Part shown: positions 3,381-60,808 of the stretch, one piece after another
How positions within the stretch are numbered: the stretch's first letter is position 1
Layout of the letters: each line of letters opens with the position of its first letter
Virus record (IMG/VR): IMGVR_UViG_3300014613_000020
Span: 34,980-98,979 of that record
Reading direction: 5' to 3' (one strand)
Origin: a virus
Length of the DNA stretch: 64,000 nucleotides
Program-made: the position numbers and the translations under genes
The notes under the pieces: generated by a model
The model's database searches: none
What the model was told of the DNA's origin: nothing
The model's input: only the letters and a program-made list of their open reading frames with translations

Positions 3381-4306
3381 ATGTAGCCAAGGTAAAACAA
3401 GAAACTAATATAGCAGATGTCATAGGGTCTGTGGTGTCACTGAGCAAGGCGGGTGGACTGCTAAAAGGACTTTGCCCATTCCATCAGGAAAAGAATGCGA
3501 GTTTCACAGTGTACACAGATAGTTTTTTCTGCTTCTCGTGCAGAGAATCTGGGGATTTACTCAGTTTTGTGCAAAAGTTTTATAAACTTGATTTTCCTCA
3601 GGCATTGGAATGGCTGGCACAGAGGCAGGGAACTTTTGAACCTGCTCCTGTCGTAAGGCACGAGCATTCAAATCCCGTGCCGGTCATTCCAGAACTTGTT
3701 ACCTATTACAATTCCATGTTAAGGGATGAACATCGTGAATACTTCCACAGTCGCCTATTCAAGGATGAAACTATTGACAGAGAAGGATGGGGGTGGTCGG
3801 GAACCAGATTCTCAATACCTGTATGGGCAGGTAGACCGCAGGAAAGTGAATGCCTTGGGATAAGGCTTAGAAAGAAGGACGGAGATGGCGGACCGAAGTA
3901 TATTGGGATTCGGGGCAGCAATGATACTGCTCTTTACAATTCTTGGTCTCTCTATGGGGAAAAAGGAGCTTTTGTCCACTTCGGGGAGTTCGACTCGCAA
4001 CTGTGCTGTCAGGATGGGTTACCATCTGTTAGTCCTGTCAATGGCTGCGGCAGTTGGGATACTTCTTGGAATGAGCATTTCGTAGACAAAGAAGGAATTA
4101 TTATCATCCCAGACGTAGGGGAAGAGAAGTTCGGGCACAGATTGGCTGACATACTGGGCACAACTAGATGTCGCGTGTTGAATCTATCCAATGGATGGCC
4201 TGGAAAAGACTATAACGAGGGGCGAATGAATGGAGCCAAGCCCAAAGATTTGTTGAATCTGTTAGTTGATCAATATTCTCAAGTGGCAGTTGAATTTGAC
4301 TTTTAG
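3350..4306 (+). CDS. dnaG: DNA primase (CHC2 zinc finger plus TOPRIM-like domain)
   Basis: GLCPFHQEK...FFCFSC zinc finger; GEFD and IIIPD acidic motifs. Confidence 0.88.
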   Translation: MPLRKVPRRVDVAKVKQETNIADVIGSVVSLSKAGGLLKGLCPFHQEKNASFTVYTDSFFCFSCRESGDLLSFVQKFYKLDFPQALEWLAQRQGTFEPAPVVRHEHSNPVPVIPELVTYYNSMLRDEHREYFHSRLFKDETIDREGWGWSGTRFSIPVWAGRPQESECLGIRLRKKDGDGGPKYIGIRGSNDTALYNSWSLYGEKGAFVHFGEFDSQLCCQDGLPSVSPVNGCGSWDTSWNEHFVDKEGIIIIPDVGEEKFGHRLADILGTTRCRVLNLSNGWPGKDYNEGRMNGAKPKDLLNLLVDQYSQVAVEFDF

Positions 4307-4317
4307 GAGAGGCTATA

Positions 4318-4659
4318 ATGAGGAAAGTAAGCAATTTTAAGTTAGATAAAATTCCAGTATGGAAGATTGTTTTTGTTGTAACAACTTCTCCCTATTATGA
4401 GATGCACCGAATTTTGTTAATTGAGGATTGGCCTAATAGGGATGAGTTTACTCTAGTTGAGGGGTATCACCAATCTTTGTGCGGTTTTGATGATACCAAA
4501 TGGGAAGCTATGGTTTATACTTGTAACGAATTAAAACGATTGGTTATTGGCTGGGGTCGTGGCCCTTTTGAAATTGAACAAAAGGCGAAACCATTGATTT
4601 TACAATATTTGGAAAATGATTATGATTTGGTAGCAGAACGTGAAATGCTGGATAGATGA
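4318..4659 (+). CDS. hypothetical protein
   Basis: AGGAG RBS; AT-richer ORF between primase and helicase. Confidence 0.6.
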   Translation: MRKVSNFKLDKIPVWKIVFVVTTSPYYEMHRILLIEDWPNRDEFTLVEGYHQSLCGFDDTKWEAMVYTCNELKRLVIGWGRGPFEIEQKAKPLILQYLENDYDLVAEREMLDR

Positions 4660-6116
4660 AACTAGTAGAGTACGAGCAGGCATTACTATCAGCAATTTTG
4701 CAGCATCCTCCGACAATAAAAATCCTTGCCCCTGAACTAACAGCGGATAAGTTTGGATGGTCTGTAGGCGGAGAGGAAGGGGGTGGGCATAGACTTATAT
4801 ACCAAGCGGCTGTCAGTTGTCATCTCAAAGGAATTCCACCGGATGCCATATCCGTAGAAAGGGAGCTTGCTGATAAGATAGAAATCGCCGGCGGTGTATC
4901 ATATCTACGTCAATTGGTCACCATCCTGCCGACTCTGGGAGTGCGGGTCGTAAACGAGAACAGCGTGCGGAACTGGGCACGGGTAGTGGACAATCTAGGC
5001 AGGTTACGTGAATTGAGCAGAGTGGTGACTTCCTATTCAGACATGCTGATGGACAAAGAACGAGCATTAAGGGAGATTGACGATGTAGACACATTCATAT
5101 CAGAACTGATAGCGGAACTGTGGAAGGCACAGGGGGTTGTAAACTCGGATTATCAACATATCAGTATTGGAATTGGGGATTTTAGGAGAAGGTTGGAACA
5201 GGAGTTGCGAGGAAGATCAATCAGCATACCGGAAATAGGTTGGCCTTCATTCAGGAGTGCAAGCTTGCCTTTTATGGGGGGACTCACAGTCATTGCAGGT
5301 CTTCCAGGAGCGGGGAAGACACAGCTTGCACTCCAGATCATGCTAGGGCAGATAATTCAGGCCAAACGACGAGGCGCTTCAGGGTGTGTGGCGATAAACA
5401 GCTATGAGATGACATCCTGGCGTATCGTTAGTCGTTTGGCCTGTTGCCTTGCGGGGGTGGATTCATCATTGCTGCGAACGGGTAAAATCAAGGAAAGTTC
5501 TGAAGACGCCAAACGTCTGTTTGAGTGGACTGAGTTTTTAGAAGACTTCCCAATCTACATAGACGACTCGAACCTTACCACATCGGCTAGAATCAATTGG
5601 CAGTCGTCGGCGTTGCACGCCATAAACGGGCCTTTGTTGCACTTGGTGGTAGACTACGCGGAGAAAGTGCCTATGAATGAGACAGGCGAACGAGACTCAA
5701 GGGAACGGCAAGTTGCATCCACTTTTATTAATGTGGCGAACATAGCTAAGGCGACGGGCGCATGTGGGACTGTGTTGTCACAGTTTAACAACTCTGTGTT
5801 ATTCAACAAAAGTAAAATCGCGGGTGCGGGTGCGCTACGCTATGGTGGTGCAGGATGGCAGGCGGCAGACGTGCAGATGGAGGTTTGGAATCCAATCAGT
5901 ATGAGGGCAAACCAAATTGACTTCATCACGCCTGACAACTTGTCGGATGATGCTGTGTGGGTGATGGTGGAGAAGTACAGGGACGGGCCTGCGGGCGAGG
6001 TGTTCCCATTGAATTGGCAAGCACAATTTACACGATTCTCAGACCCCAAACTGTCTCAGACATTCGGGGCCGATTTGTACGAGGGATTGTCCGATTTGCG
6101 GGGAAGAGACTTCTAA
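4656..6116 (+). CDS. dnaB: replicative DNA helicase (DnaB family)
   Basis: N-terminal EQALLSAIL, Walker A GLPGAGKT, SYEM, VVDY, LSQF, KYRDGPAG. Confidence 0.92.
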   Translation: MKLVEYEQALLSAILQHPPTIKILAPELTADKFGWSVGGEEGGGHRLIYQAAVSCHLKGIPPDAISVERELADKIEIAGGVSYLRQLVTILPTLGVRVVNENSVRNWARVVDNLGRLRELSRVVTSYSDMLMDKERALREIDDVDTFISELIAELWKAQGVVNSDYQHISIGIGDFRRRLEQELRGRSISIPEIGWPSFRSASLPFMGGLTVIAGLPGAGKTQLALQIMLGQIIQAKRRGASGCVAINSYEMTSWRIVSRLACCLAGVDSSLLRTGKIKESSEDAKRLFEWTEFLEDFPIYIDDSNLTTSARINWQSSALHAINGPLLHLVVDYAEKVPMNETGERDSRERQVASTFINVANIAKATGACGTVLSQFNNSVLFNKSKIAGAGALRYGGAGWQAADVQMEVWNPISMRANQIDFITPDNLSDDAVWVMVEKYRDGPAGEVFPLNWQAQFTRFSDPKLSQTFGADLYEGLSDLRGRDF

Positions 6117-34373: not shown

Positions 34374-35399
34374 ATGTGGTATGGTGAATTGAGAGAGACA
34401 ATACCTATCTGGCTAGAGACATTGAAAGACGAAGAGACTGGTCTATACAGACTATCGCATTCCGCATTTGACAAATACTCTGTGGACGCAACGAGTCTGG
34501 CAATGGATGTTAAGTGGATGCTAGACTTGCCTATCTGTCAATGTGAGTGGGATTACTTGGCTAGATGTCAGCATTGTGATGGATTGATAGAAGAAGAAAG
34601 AGAACCGGATTCTAGTGAACCAAGGGCAAGGGAGATGTCAGCCACATACCTTGGATTTCAGGTGGCCGGACTAGCACTTGCTACAGGGGTGAAGTCACTT
34701 TATCCATTCTCGTTTTATGACAAGTTTTTAGGAGATAAGTTAATAGAAGACTATCTTGAATCCATGCCATGGGACACCAAACCGATGGGCGCTGGTAACA
34801 TGATAGACCATGGGGTGATGATGATGAGATACAATGTATTGTTAGGACAACAAGAATATAGACCTATTATCAGTAATATGTGGCGATGGTTAAGAAATCA
34901 AACGCATTTTGCCATGGGGCTATGGGGCAATCCAGATGCTCAGGGACTAAATGGATTAGTGCAAGCAGGCTATCACATCATAAGAGTAGGATTCCCATTA
35001 AGGTACCTAAATTCAAAAGAGGTTATTGATACAATCTTACAGAGTTGGTCTGAGTCCTTTCTAACTGATGCTTGTTTTGATTTAGACCATGCCTGTCTAT
35101 TAGAAAGAGTAGAAAGTCTTAATCCAAACTATCGCAAATTTGATATATGGAAGATGGCACATGATATGTTAGAGTCTATTAAAGATTGCAACTTACGAGA
35201 TGATGGTGCATTTTCATTCAACAACTTTCAGGCAATTAAAAATCACAACAGGTATGAGGTAACACCGGGAAACACAGAAAGTGATTTGGTGGGGACTGTA
35301 TTGTACATGGAAGCTATCTATCGTTTATGTTTACTATTGAGACAAGCACCGCCTTGGAGGAGTTCAGCGACACATGGTATTAAGGAGGATGGCGGATGA
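34374..35399 (+). CDS. hypothetical enzyme, possibly alpha/alpha-barrel
   Basis: Repeated GxW/GxF motifs (GLYR, GLWG, DGAFSF); lies within the sugar cluster. Confidence 0.55.
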   Translation: MWYGELRETIPIWLETLKDEETGLYRLSHSAFDKYSVDATSLAMDVKWMLDLPICQCEWDYLARCQHCDGLIEEEREPDSSEPRAREMSATYLGFQVAGLALATGVKSLYPFSFYDKFLGDKLIEDYLESMPWDTKPMGAGNMIDHGVMMMRYNVLLGQQEYRPIISNMWRWLRNQTHFAMGLWGNPDAQGLNGLVQAGYHIIRVGFPLRYLNSKEVIDTILQSWSESFLTDACFDLDHACLLERVESLNPNYRKFDIWKMAHDMLESIKDCNLRDDGAFSFNNFQAIKNHNRYEVTPGNTESDLVGTVLYMEAIYRLCLLLRQAPPWRSSATHGIKEDGG

Positions 35400-57119: not shown

Positions 57120-57154
57120 GGGCAGACCTTGGAACATCAAGGTCTGCCTTTTTT
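57120..57154 (+). terminator. intrinsic terminator-like hairpin in the head-operon leader
   Basis: GGCAGACCTT-loop-AAGGTCTGCC followed by a T-run. Confidence 0.7.
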
Positions 57155-57176
57155 GTTTTGCACAAAAGGAGGTGGT

Positions 57177-57893
57177 ATGGTAACAGAGTTAACTGATTTA
57201 GAAATTGATTCCGTTGGGCTAGTTCGTAAGGGGGCGAATAAACGCCCGTTCTTTTTAATGAAAGGTGATAACATGGATCTAAATCAAGAGGACGTGTTGG
57301 ATACTCTTGAGGAACTTTCCACTCTACCAGAAGACGGCCTTGATCGTAACGCGTGGAATCGCGCTATGGACGTGATCAAGGGAATTGTCAACAACATGGT
57401 TACACCTCCGGCAGTCAAGGAGGAAGAGGTTGAAGAGCAGGATGATATGGCAGACATCAAGGAGTTGAGGTCTGAGTTGGCATCCGTTGCAAAGGCAGCC
57501 ACCAACCAAGTAGAGGCAGTGGAGAAGGCATATCAGACGGAATTGGCAAAGCGGGACAATCGCATTGAGGAGCTTGAAAAAGCCGCTGAGATGGTTGAAA
57601 TCAATCCCATTGCCAAGTCTGCTAATTTGGATGCTGATATGCTGTACGGACTCAAGAAATCTAACAGGGATGCGTTTGACGCACTAACCGGAGCACTGGA
57701 CGCAAAGGACAAGCAGTTAGAAGAAGCGGGTCTCTGGAAGGAAGTTGGAAGTGCTTTGGAAACCGGCACAACTGACTATGTCAAGAAAACCTTGGCTAAA
57801 GCAGAGGCCACGGGCAAAAATCTGGACGAGGTCATTGCTGAAAGTCCGGACGAGTACGCCCGCTATCGTAGAGAAATAATGGGGAGGTCCTAA
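57177..57893 (+). CDS. capsid scaffolding protein (putative)
   Basis: LTDLEIDSVGLVRKGAN..FFLMK N-terminus, coiled coil, position before the decoration and capsid genes. Confidence 0.7.
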   Translation: MVTELTDLEIDSVGLVRKGANKRPFFLMKGDNMDLNQEDVLDTLEELSTLPEDGLDRNAWNRAMDVIKGIVNNMVTPPAVKEEEVEEQDDMADIKELRSELASVAKAATNQVEAVEKAYQTELAKRDNRIEELEKAAEMVEINPIAKSANLDADMLYGLKKSNRDAFDALTGALDAKDKQLEEAGLWKEVGSALETGTTDYVKKTLAKAEATGKNLDEVIAESPDEYARYRREIMGRS

Positions 57894-58309
57894 TGGGTGG
57901 AGCATTCGAACGGCACACTGACTATTTCCCGAATGTGACAGCCGCGGCTGACTATTCAGCCAAGCAATTCTATGTCGTGTACATGAGTTCCGACACTGCT
58001 GTTACACTGTGCGACGCCACACCCGCTCTTACCCCCATTGGCGTTCTGAACAACGAGCCGGCGTCCGGTGAGACGGCACAGGTCGTGTACGTGCCTGGGG
58101 ATATCACAAAGGCTCTGTGTTCAGTTAGTACATGCACCATCTCGCGCTGGAACCCACTGTGGGTTGACTCTAGCGCGCGCGTAATCAGACAGGTCACAAC
58201 GGGCTGCCCTTACTTTGCGCGCTCATTGGTGACTACAACGGCTTCTGGCGTGATTCCGGTTATGATAACGGGTCCGATGATTATGACAACTGGGAGCCAC
58301 AACGTCTAA
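57893..58309 (+). CDS. head decoration / cement protein (DUF2190-like)
   Basis: AAADYSAKQFY..PIGVLNNEPASGETAQV. Confidence 0.75.
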   Translation: MGGAFERHTDYFPNVTAAADYSAKQFYVVYMSSDTAVTLCDATPALTPIGVLNNEPASGETAQVVYVPGDITKALCSVSTCTISRWNPLWVDSSARVIRQVTTGCPYFARSLVTTTASGVIPVMITGPMIMTTGSHNV

Positions 58310-58599
58310 TGAATTTTACCTATCCTGATAGAGGAGAAAATAATGAGTGAGATTAGAATTGGATGGTGTTGGGAAACGGGGAGGCGAACGGAAGAGTTAG
58401 TGGGTGAGCGGGTTGGCTACAAATTCTGCAATGCTAGAGGTGAGGAGCTTGGGCCACAGGACAACGAACCAACCTTGGTTCGCGTATGGGCGGACAACCA
58501 AACCATCATCGTTCCATACGCGTACCTGACTGACATTTTGATGATGTGAGCCTCCAGAAGTATTGACACGGATAGGCCATGCCATAAGGAGATAATAAA

Positions 58600-60808
58600 A
58601 TGGCAGAACCTACTCTCAACGATCAAATGTAGGTCGTTGTAAAATCTCTCCTGAATAACGGGAACGCCTGAGATGGCTACCCGAGGCAAGCAAGCGCAAG
58701 CTGTGCAGCCGCAGAGAAGCAAGCGGAGAGACACCCAAAAGGGTGATGCGGTGCTCCGAACCTATGACGAAATCAAGCATAGGAACTAGGCAGAAATGAC
58801 CTAGTCACATCAGAAATGATGGGGTAACAGCAAGCTACACGTAAATGCACCACTAACAAATATCTCTATTGCTTATCGCAACCCAGTTTATGTAGCTGAT
58901 ACAGTTTTTCCTCTGGTGCGAGTAAACAAGCAAAGTGATATCTATATCAAGTACGACAAATCGGATTAAAGAATCAGTCCCCCTATAGAGTGATCTATAG
59001 GTGCAAAGCTCTCAAATTCGGCGAACGCTGAGAAGAGATTATCATAGAATAATCCGCCAACGCCGAGCCAACCTTAATTGTACTTTGACAGCCAAAAAGA
59101 CATCGCAGCAGATGGATTGGGGCAATTGTTTAGAGCAGTTATAACACGATGACATGAGGAACAGAGAGTGATAAGATTATCAAGTTTGTTACTCCGGCCA
59201 ATTAGATGATGAACAGCAAGACTTGATCTTTTACCATCTGAATGGTCACGAAAGCATATTTGACAAAGGTAATGATCACGCTCAAGAACTTTGTTATAAT
59301 TTCCTCTCATTTTGTTCAGATTTCGTTGGTATTTTATCTTTTCAAGGCATTGATCACAATATCTATCTGAATGAGATGAAAGTGGATCTCCACAACTATA
59401 ACAGAATCCAGATTCCATACGTTTTTGTCTATACAACTTCATTTCGGAACGTTCTATCCTGAGGTGCTTTTCACAATAGACAGTAGAGACAGAAGAAAGA
59501 ATGCCACTACAACGTACACAAACGCCATCAGATTTTCGTTTTTTATATCTTTGAGATTTACCACGTTTAGCACGCTCTAAACAAGTACGACAGGATGTAT
59601 AACCTGGTTCTGGGGTACGACTACATCGGCAAAGTCCTCGTGCAACGTAGACGGTTGCTGCTATTGTACCATTAGCAACACCTAATGCTTTAGCAGCTCT
59701 ACCAAAGGAACCAAAAAATGCATAAGCCTCAATTCTCTGAGCTAAGATTTGAGTGGGTACACTTTTCTTTCTGCCCATATTTAATCTCCTATATCACTAA
59801 ACCAATTGTCTCTAAACCATTATACCACAAATTGGGGATTAAGTCAAATCTGTTAATTGGTACAATTTAAGAAGTGTGTAGAGATCAGACGGGAGCATAC
59901 TCAAATGAGTATATGGCATGATCCGATCTGCAACAAAAATGAAGTTGCAGAGGTTCACAGAAATGATGAACCCGCCTACAAAAGTAGGTCAACTAAGTAA
60001 CAGATTGTGGTTTCGAGATGAGGCGGCCCGTCGCGCTCCTGGCGAGGAAGCGAAGCGGTCCGGGTGGAACATTGATAAGACCAATACTTTCTACTGTGAT
60101 AACTTCGCGCTTGGGAAGGATATTCCTGACGAAGTTAGGGCGGGGGCGGACAGCCTCTACACCCTTGATCGTGAGGCAACCATCTTTGTCACAGACCGTC
60201 TACAGCTACAGCGAGATGTAAAATTTGCAGCCACTGCTTTTATAACAGGTGTCTGGGGAACTACAGTCACGGGTAACTCCAGCTTTACCTATTGGGACAC
60301 GTACGCGAGTTCAGACCCAATCAGTGATGTCCACGATGGGGTTGAGACCATCCTGCAGAATACGGGCAAGGTTGCTAATACACTGCTAATGGGGTTTCAG
60401 GTTTTCAACGAGTTGCAGGACCATCCAGACTTCCTAGACAGAATCAAGTACACTAATGTCGGCATAGTCACCGAGGACTTGATGGCGCGTGTATTTGGTG
60501 TCGAACGTGTCATAGTAGCACGACCTATCTACACGACTGATCTTCAACTCAACACTATCGCAGCGTACAGTTTTATCTTCGGGAAGAATGCACTTCTTGC
60601 CTACGTCGCACCGCGTCCTAGTCTCATGGAACCGTCTGCTGGGTACACCTTCTGGTGGGATGGTGGATTTGGCGGGAACGGCCCTCAGATAATCAGCAAC
60701 AGGCGTGATGGTGCGCGCCACACTGATGTGGTAGAAGGATTCTCCTGGTACGATCAGGTTTTGACTTCAACGGACTGTGGGTACTTTTTCCTAACAGCTG
60801 TTAGCTAA
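58600..60808 (+). CDS. major capsid protein, join(58600..58623, 58835..58966, 60008..60808), about 318 aa
   Basis: The spliced product MAEPTLND|LHVNAPLTNISIAYRN...YDKSD|WFRDEAARRAPG...PSAGYTF..GYFFLTAVS is in frame and looks like a phage capsid protein. Confidence 0.9.
58624..58834 (+). ncRNA. group I intron 1 in the capsid gene (211 nt, no ORF)
   Basis: P1 CAACGAU|C paired with GGUCGUUG, U.G at the splice site; P10 UGUAG/CUACA; terminal G; P7-like GAGAAGCA/UGCUCC. Confidence 0.88.
59074..59778 (-). CDS. HNH homing endonuclease with Cys-rich repeats, intron-encoded, antisense
   Basis: VLERDHYLCQIC...LAVHH..NKLDNLITLCSSCH; AGGAG RBS. Confidence 0.9.
   Translation of the reverse strand: MGRKKSVPTQILAQRIEAYAFFGSFGRAAKALGVANGTIAATVYVARGLCRCSRTPEPGYTSCRTCLERAKRGKSQRYKKRKSDGVCVRCSGILSSVSTVYCEKHLRIERSEMKLYRQKRMESGFCYSCGDPLSSHSDRYCDQCLEKIKYQRNLNKMRGNYNKVLERDHYLCQICFRDHSDGKRSSLAVHHLIGRSNKLDNLITLCSSCHRVITALNNCPNPSAAMSFWLSKYN
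59819..59847 (-). promoter_or_regulatory. promoter for the antisense HNH gene
   Basis: Minus strand TTGACT-17-TATAAT. Confidence 0.8.

Follow-up and report, generated by a model that had tools for sequence, protein, structure and literature searches.

The question raised by this locus is how an uncultured phage obtains its major capsid protein (MCP) from a gene that lies in three pieces, separated by inserts of 211 and 1041 nt. The window, by which we mean the whole stretch of DNA that was analysed, is the final 64 kb (64,000 nt, positions 34,980 to 98,979) of the 98,979-bp IMG/VR record IMGVR_UViG_3300014613_000020, which CheckV rates as complete (100%). An earlier note on this DNA, made from the sequence alone, had interpreted both inserts as group I introns. 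We find that this reading is correct, and that the gene is very probably split in three by two such introns and spliced into an mRNA for a capsid protein of 318 residues.

The exons and the encoded protein

The elements of the gene, in order, are these:

58586..58591, + strand: ribosome-binding site AAGGAG, 8 nt ahead of the capsid ATG (direct sequence reading)
58600..58623, + strand: exon 1, 24 nt, 8 codons, encoding MAEPTLND
58624..58834, + strand: intron 1, 211 nt, a group I intron of compact form that lacks P2 and any open reading frame (ORF); terminal G at 58834
58835..58966, + strand: exon 2, 132 nt, 44 codons
58967..60007, + strand: intron 2, 1041 nt, a group I intron of IC3 type (Azoarcus-like); terminal G at 60007
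60008..60808, + strand: exon 3, 801 nt, 266 codons plus stop

Joined, the three exons are in frame and open for 318 residues, with exactly the lengths and boundaries that the earlier note had given, and both 5′ exons end with the codon GAT, as it had also observed. Judged by sequence comparison, the three-piece gene encodes a lambda gpE-like MCP. Residues 2–43 of exon 2 match positions 11–52 of PHROG 1005 (major head protein; E 9e-13) and residues 1–265 of exon 3 match positions 54–314 (E 1.1e-62); the profile is thus continuous over the second junction, and the two exons jointly cover positions 11–314, as expected of a full-length family member. Exon 3 has more than 1000 database homologues, many of which carry PF03864; a Pfam search of the exons taken separately gave no match.

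The earlier note had made its reading depend on whether intron-less homologues align across the predicted junctions, and they do. In a MAFFT alignment with five uninterrupted phage capsid proteins (ValentiniPuff, KPP23, RDJL6, Salgado and Ottawa) both junctions are free of gaps, and MAEPTLND followed by LHVNAPLTNISIAY is paired with MPQPTENSLHINAPLTNVSVAY. The closest DNA obtained, the IMG/VR contig L006, is 68% identical with identical gene order, and has a single open capsid gene of 317 residues that begins MASPTLNNLHVNA and reads KADWFRDEA over the second site, again without gaps against the joined exons at either junction. The 8-codon first exon agrees with the N-termini of relatives (MASPTLNN and MPSPTLND). 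The capsid exons show no sign of decay. A whole-genome search with PHROG 1005 finds only these exon pieces in the 98,979 bp, so that there is no second capsid gene, in line with the suggestion that capsid output would depend on splicing.

Intron 1 and its family

Helices of intron 1 are numbered from its first base, and the splice-site pairings were read by hand. Two elements matter most:

58628..58639, + strand: internal guide of intron 1, with the P10 strand at 58628-58632 and the P1 strand at 58633-58639 (direct reading)
58714..58721, + strand: 5′ strand of P7 in intron 1, G(A)G(A)AGCA; its partner UGCUCC lies at 58752-58757 (intron bases 91-98 and 129-134)

P1 is formed by the last seven bases of exon 1 (−7 to −1, CAACGAU) and intron bases 10-16 (GUCGUUG), giving seven pairs with a U.G at the splice site, while bases 5-9 (UGUAG) pair with the first five of exon 2 (CUACA) in a P10 of five pairs. 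The core follows with P3 (22-28 with 102-108), P4 (36-39 with 57-60), P5 (43-45 with 52-54), P6 (62-63 with 86-87 and, under a GCAA loop, 67-72 with 77-83) and P8 (109-113 with 118-122); J6/7 is GCA, J7/3 is AGC and J8/7 is AUGCGG, and 3′ of the core lie P9, P9.1, P9.2 and the terminal G, base 211. P7 provides the guanosine-binding site, with the canonical bulged A plus one extra unpaired A. An unaided minimum-energy fold recovers every nested helix (P3-P6, P8, P9, P9.1 and P9.2) at −71.1 kcal/mol, with a z of −4.7 against shuffles.

Relatives of intron 1 were found in IMG/VR and in JGI metagenomes by searches with its P4 and P7/P3′ motifs. The window copy and six distinct relatives were aligned by plain MAFFT (alignment A2) and given a hand-drawn structure with P7 as a pseudoknot. 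Over the 48 pairs of this structure 94.9% of the cells are paired, compared with 36-41% after sliding of the partners, and both-sided changes are seen in 20 pairs, against 2-8 in the slid controls; none of 500 shuffles matched the observed values. P7 is 100% paired in all seven sequences and three of its pairs covary: the relatives have GACUA/UAGUC, GACUG/CAGUC and GAACA/UGUUC where the window has GA(A)AGCA/UGCUC. The conserved P3-P9 core with its P3/P7 pseudoknot is in this way backed by covariation. A covariance model (R2) built from the six relatives, all on other contigs, with the window copy excluded (leave-one-out), finds intron 1 with 145.7 bits (E 1.9e-38). Two relatives match the curated Rfam family RF00028 (Intron_gpI) with 32.9 bits (E 3.9e-5) and 29.3 bits (E 4.6e-4) and an identical helix assignment, and through them the family is connected with curated group I introns. 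The guide of each relative pairs with its own upstream exon with a U.G at the splice site, also as read by hand. At the level of sequence and predicted structure, intron 1 clearly belongs to a metagenomic group I intron family.

The extra bulged A in P7, to which the earlier note had drawn attention, is real and confined to the window copy: P7 of the six relatives is of the canonical G(A)GACUA/UAGUCC type, without the additional base in the 5′ strand.

Intron 2 and its relation to intron 1

The ribozyme of intron 2 lies in two halves:

58967..59091, + strand: 5′ ribozyme half, comprising guide, P2, P3 5′ strand, P4, P5 and P6 5′ strand (59073-59091)
59850..60007, + strand: 3′ ribozyme half, comprising P6 3′ strand, J6/7, P7, P3 3′ strand, P8, P9, P9.1, P9.2 and the tail GUAACAGAUUG

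The halves are joined by a long P6 stem (59073-59091 with 59850-59871) that closes a loop of ~760 nt. The guide consists of the P10 strand at 58971-58976 and the P1 strand at 58977-58980; P1 pairs GGAU with GUCC, with a U.G at the splice site, and P10 pairs GAAUCA with UGGUUU over six pairs. P1 with U.G, P10 and a terminal G are accordingly present in both introns, as the earlier note had stated. P2 has eight pairs and a GUGA loop, P3 is GCUCUC/GGGAGC, P4 is UUCGGCG/CGCCGAG and P8 is AUACUC/GAGUAU, while P7 pairs G(A)GAUCA (59881-59887) with UGAUCC (59919-59924) and provides the guanosine-binding site. When the endonuclease loop is swapped for a tetraloop, the fold gives the nested helices P2-P6, P8 and P9.

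The P3-P8 core of intron 2 is like that of Azoarcus-type introns. A model of the IC3 core made from 32 bacterial and viral introns (R1) gave only two matches in the 64-kb window at E <0.5, and these are the two halves of intron 2 (59004-59153, 35 bits, E 1.6e-7; 59804-59925, 21.1 bits). The pair of P4 motifs of intron 2 was found in 14 viral and at least 120 bacterial loci. A canonical R element lies within 150 nt at 77 of 134 P4 motif sites, and every one of these 77 has, in addition, a complementary 3′ strand of P7 with C as the next base. For intron 1, R1 gave no match; its assignment as a plain IC3 intron was thus dropped and we do not place it in IC3.

The two introns are related in P7-P9.1, since R2 also matches the 3′ half of intron 2 (59802-59972, 40.4 bits, E 1e-9). 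They have the loop CAGAAAUGA and the tail GUAACAG in common and differ in P3-P6. The loop occurs twice in intron 1, in P9.1 and P9.2 (58792-58800 and 58812-58820), and once in intron 2, in P9.1 (59958-59966); in P9.1 of the relatives it is near-invariant (A2 columns ~208-216) and the stem below it covaries. It probably makes a tertiary contact.

The endonuclease cassette

The loop of P6 in intron 2 carries a gene with a promoter-like site, both antisense to the capsid gene; neither was mentioned in the earlier note, which had the introns and their boundaries right.

59074..59778, − strand: HNH homing endonuclease gene, 234 residues, within the P6 loop of intron 2 and antisense to the capsid gene
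59819..59847, − strand: promoter-like site of the endonuclease gene, TTGACT, 17-nt spacer, TATAAT and an upstream TG

Residues 172-211 of the product match PF01844 (HNH) with 26.5 bits, above the cut-off of 21.4. Of eleven PHROG families that it matches, ten are HNH endonucleases and one is annotated as terminase small subunit. The start codon is preceded by AGGAG at 7 nt. The promoter-like site, a match to consensus only, agrees with the consensus at 11 of 12 positions; no better site occurs in the scanned region. Presumably the gene is expressed independently of the late capsid operon, and presumably the enzyme cuts intron-less capsid alleles and so drives homing, for which the patchy intron distribution described below is the support.

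Splicing and alternative explanations

We suggest that, after late transcription, each intron would fold into a standard group I core in which the U.G site of P1 is attacked by free guanosine; the released 5′ exon, still paired to the guide, would in turn attack 3′ of the terminal G, while P10 holds the 3′ exon in place, and the two splicing reactions would yield the mRNA for the 318-residue capsid protein. Since stop codons occur two codons into intron 1 (TAG in the exon 1 frame, bases 7-9) and right at the start of intron 2 (TAA in the exon 2 frame, its first three bases), unspliced RNA would yield short peptides only. These early stops would shield the two ribozyme cores from ribosomes, as in other phage introns. 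The 5′ strand of intron 1 P1 lies only 18-24 nt past the A of the ATG, and it is thus probable that the initiating ribosome and P1 compete for it. Intron 2 may in addition be mobile: its P6-borne HNH gene, with its own putative promoter, would be expressed apart from late capsid transcription, and the endonuclease would cut intron-less capsid alleles of co-infecting relatives, into which intron 2 would be copied.

Several points weigh against this reading. P1 of intron 2 is limited to four pairs. Neither intron reaches the gathering score of RF00028 (50): the best for intron 2 is 22.9 bits (E 0.004), at its 5′ end, and at intron 1 Intron_gpI finds nothing, even in a 261-nt search around it. 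The extra unpaired A of intron 1, which none of the six relatives has, lies in P7 near the guanosine-binding pair and could lower activity. The genome is furthermore a metagenome assembly and may be a defective variant. The extra A and the lack of an Rfam match at intron 1 could suggest that the inserts are group I introns by descent of which at least one, most likely intron 1, no longer splices efficiently, in a crippled variant or one in need of a helper protein or a co-infecting phage. The database protein P0004, discussed below, could be taken in the same direction, as its back-translation appears to fit a canonical P7, a weak indication in that it is inferred from protein. We consider this improbable, though it is the more serious of the alternatives. 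All other helices and junctions of intron 1 are intact in a sequence that scores 145.7 bits with the model of its relatives, the single-copy capsid gene is undecayed in a genome rated complete, and a lone bulge in P7 is commonly tolerated where it lies apart from the G-binding pair. The score of intron 2 is low because of its large endonuclease insertion, and the failure of Rfam looks like low sensitivity and not like evidence against membership. The check with Infernal group I models that the earlier note had proposed is positive for the custom models R1 (at intron 2) and R2, and falls short for RF00028 at its gathering score. Several of the IC3 P4-motif sites in five IMG/VR contigs (L009, L010, L012, L015 and L018) are likewise uncalled by RF00028 at that score; those in L009 and L010 lie within phage tRNA gene arrays. 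Introns of this type are thus under-detected by Rfam.

That the inserts are not RNA introns at all is less probable still. Free-standing endonuclease genes do split phage genes, and the locus could be imagined as an endonuclease cassette between separately translated pieces, as an intein or as a case of translational bypassing. Both inserts, however, have a full group I core, a terminal G and guides that match their own exons; an intein is ruled out by stop codons in all frames; 211 and 1041 nt far exceed known bypass gaps; and as separate products the 8- and 44-codon pieces would be unable to fold or assemble. A group II intron was rejected together with the intein and the bypass, on grounds of size, stop codons and structure. 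We therefore keep to the reading of two group I introns that are very probably spliced, with R2 and the covariation as the evidence for intron 1 and the R1 matches to both halves for intron 2.

Distribution among relatives and genomic setting

P0004, 86% identical to the capsid protein, starts at an ATG inside intron 1 and continues through exons 2 and 3 with the second site unbroken, so that this relative has intron 1 and not intron 2. A stop-free frame from the intron 1 ATG makes it a gene call of 363 residues with a 53-residue intron-derived N-terminus; in the window the corresponding frame is interrupted by three stops. In relatives at 63-71% identity the protein is intact, with 316-322 residues, and neither intron is present. 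As far as these sequences go, the patchy distribution is typical of mobile introns. Other copies of either intron were found in the genome neither by blastn nor by R1 and R2 on the remaining 35 kb, and the capsid region had no blastn match among 50,697 phage records. The exact R elements (P7/P3′) of each intron and the 3′ end of intron 1 were not found in IMG/VR, nor was the pattern of intron 1 3′ end plus exon 2 in the JGI metagenomes.

Gene calling is affected directly. The public protein for the capsid gene, P0003 (289 residues), starts at a spurious ATG inside intron 2, in keeping with the remark in the earlier note that ORF calls miss the true N-terminus. Automatic calls thereby give a capsid without its first 52 residues and with a false 23-residue N-terminus. 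Rfam alone would flag neither intron, and at gathering score reports one tRNA and no group I intron in the whole window. The models R1 and R2 and the list of family members could help to find such introns elsewhere.

The capsid gene sits in a head-morphogenesis block, with a 644-residue ORF downstream and these two ORFs upstream:

57129-57893: protease- or scaffold-like ORF
57893-58309: scaffold-like ORF

Between the scaffold-like and capsid genes lies an ORF of 68 residues (58343-58549) with no family match, and L006 has an ORF of 76 residues at the matching position (691-921).

Insertion sites of the intron 1 family

Exact searches for intron core motifs gave eight independent insertion sites for the family of intron 1:

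Window: gpE-like capsid gene, after codon 8
L144/L145: a further capsid gene of PHROG 1005, at ~codon 87, with a LAGLIDADG-type ORF in P6
L143/L147: PHROG 1357 capsid gene, at its 3′ end
L168: PHROG 1357 capsid gene, at profile position 54; a second group I-like intron lies directly upstream
L150: weakly capsid-like gene, after ~codon 12
L153, L154, L156 and L165: tail-tube-like gene, after codon 13 or 14
L152: gene of unknown function, 19 nt in
L164, minus strand, ~5395-5800: queC, with an upstream ORF inside the intron and a 3′ exon matching PF06508 (E 1.6e-25)

Major capsid genes of two unrelated families account for four of the eight sites and a probable capsid gene for a fifth, and the others are one each in a tail-tube gene, queC and the gene of unknown function; half of the eight lie within the first 14 codons. 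As one member sits in a phage queC, the family is not restricted to virion genes. We offer only tentatively, and with more doubt than conviction, the idea that intron 1 represents a lineage of compact, mostly ORF-less introns, missed by Rfam, that prefers highly expressed virion genes right after the start codon; the sample is small and the pattern was noticed post hoc. If true, it would point to retargeting of the guide, for instance by reverse splicing, together with selection for, or tolerance of, introns near the translation start, and initiating ribosomes would compete with P1 formation at such start-proximal sites.

Other capsid loci seen in these searches carry several introns. Near the 5′ end of the capsid gene in L168 (600-1788) there are two, a classical R/S-type intron that ends with GUAACAG at ~690 and, after an exon of ~100 nt, the member of the intron 1 family, followed by an exon of 279 residues. 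In L011 (2900-5403; the same as L013) three introns validated by Rfam (87.5, 80 and 73.9 bits) and a fourth with IC3 motifs are packed into ~2 kb immediately upstream of a PHROG 1357 capsid fragment. Of the Rfam matches there, two (4176-4471 and 4491-4755) are separated by 19 nt, which suggests a micro-exon.

Relation to known systems

Group I introns in capsid genes, antisense endonuclease genes within them and capsid genes with several introns have all been published, and the novelty of the present case is low. The earlier note, which took introns in such a gene to be unusual, overstated their rarity: they are known from capsid and other late genes, with several in one capsid gene. The mycobacteriophage LittleE, a large siphovirus, has a group I-type intron in its MCP gene, the splicing of which was shown by reverse transcription PCR and by N-terminal sequencing over the junction; the intron carries a leftward-transcribed endonuclease gene, and sister phages have a related intron in a tail gene (Pope et al. 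2013, PMC3706429). The same paper cites a capsid intron of Tuc2009 (Pope et al. 2013, PMC3706429). The window shares with LittleE the U before the 5′ splice site, the G at the intron end and the endonuclease gene in opposite direction, but has two introns instead of one and an HNH instead of a LAGLIDADG-like endonuclease, and differs in capsid family and host; no 8-codon first exon is described for LittleE. In crAss-like phages that belong to the Delta group, the MCP is a typical target of group I introns, and in a Zeta-group genome it is broken up into five pieces (Yutin et al. 2021, PMC7886860). These are, like ours, metagenome-assembled phages with introns in the MCP gene, but of another capsid family and phage lineage, and their introns were recognised through encoded protein domains, whereas here the RNA cores were modelled and one of the introns has no ORF.

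Several small group I introns in one phage gene, as in the window, are said to occur also in orf142 of Staphylococcus phage Twort, where Landthaler and Shub reportedly described three in 1999 (cited in PMC6669764); these reportedly belong to a subgroup different from that of the window introns. The exact P4 motifs AAAUUCGGCG and CGCCGAGCCAA of intron 2, and its R/S elements GUAGAGAYYNGACGG and AAGGCA-P7′, are also those of the IC3 introns of bacterial tRNA genes (Azoarcus and cyanobacterial). Intron 2 differs from these in that it lies in a protein-coding late phage gene, has a P6 endonuclease cassette of ~760 nt, and is like the intron 1 family, and not like them, in its 3′ part (P9, P9.1 and tail). 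Jumbo gut phages have ~18 group I introns per genome on average.

What is particular to the window is the combination of two related introns, both missed by Rfam, in a gpE-like capsid gene with an 8-codon first exon, one of them having a P7 with one extra bulge and the other an antisense HNH cassette with a promoter-like site in P6. In this phage a protein that is needed in hundreds of copies per virion would depend on two ribozyme reactions, and its gene is also host to a selfish endonuclease cassette. The finding is one more piece of the growing evidence for capsid genes as regular, not exceptional, targets of introns.

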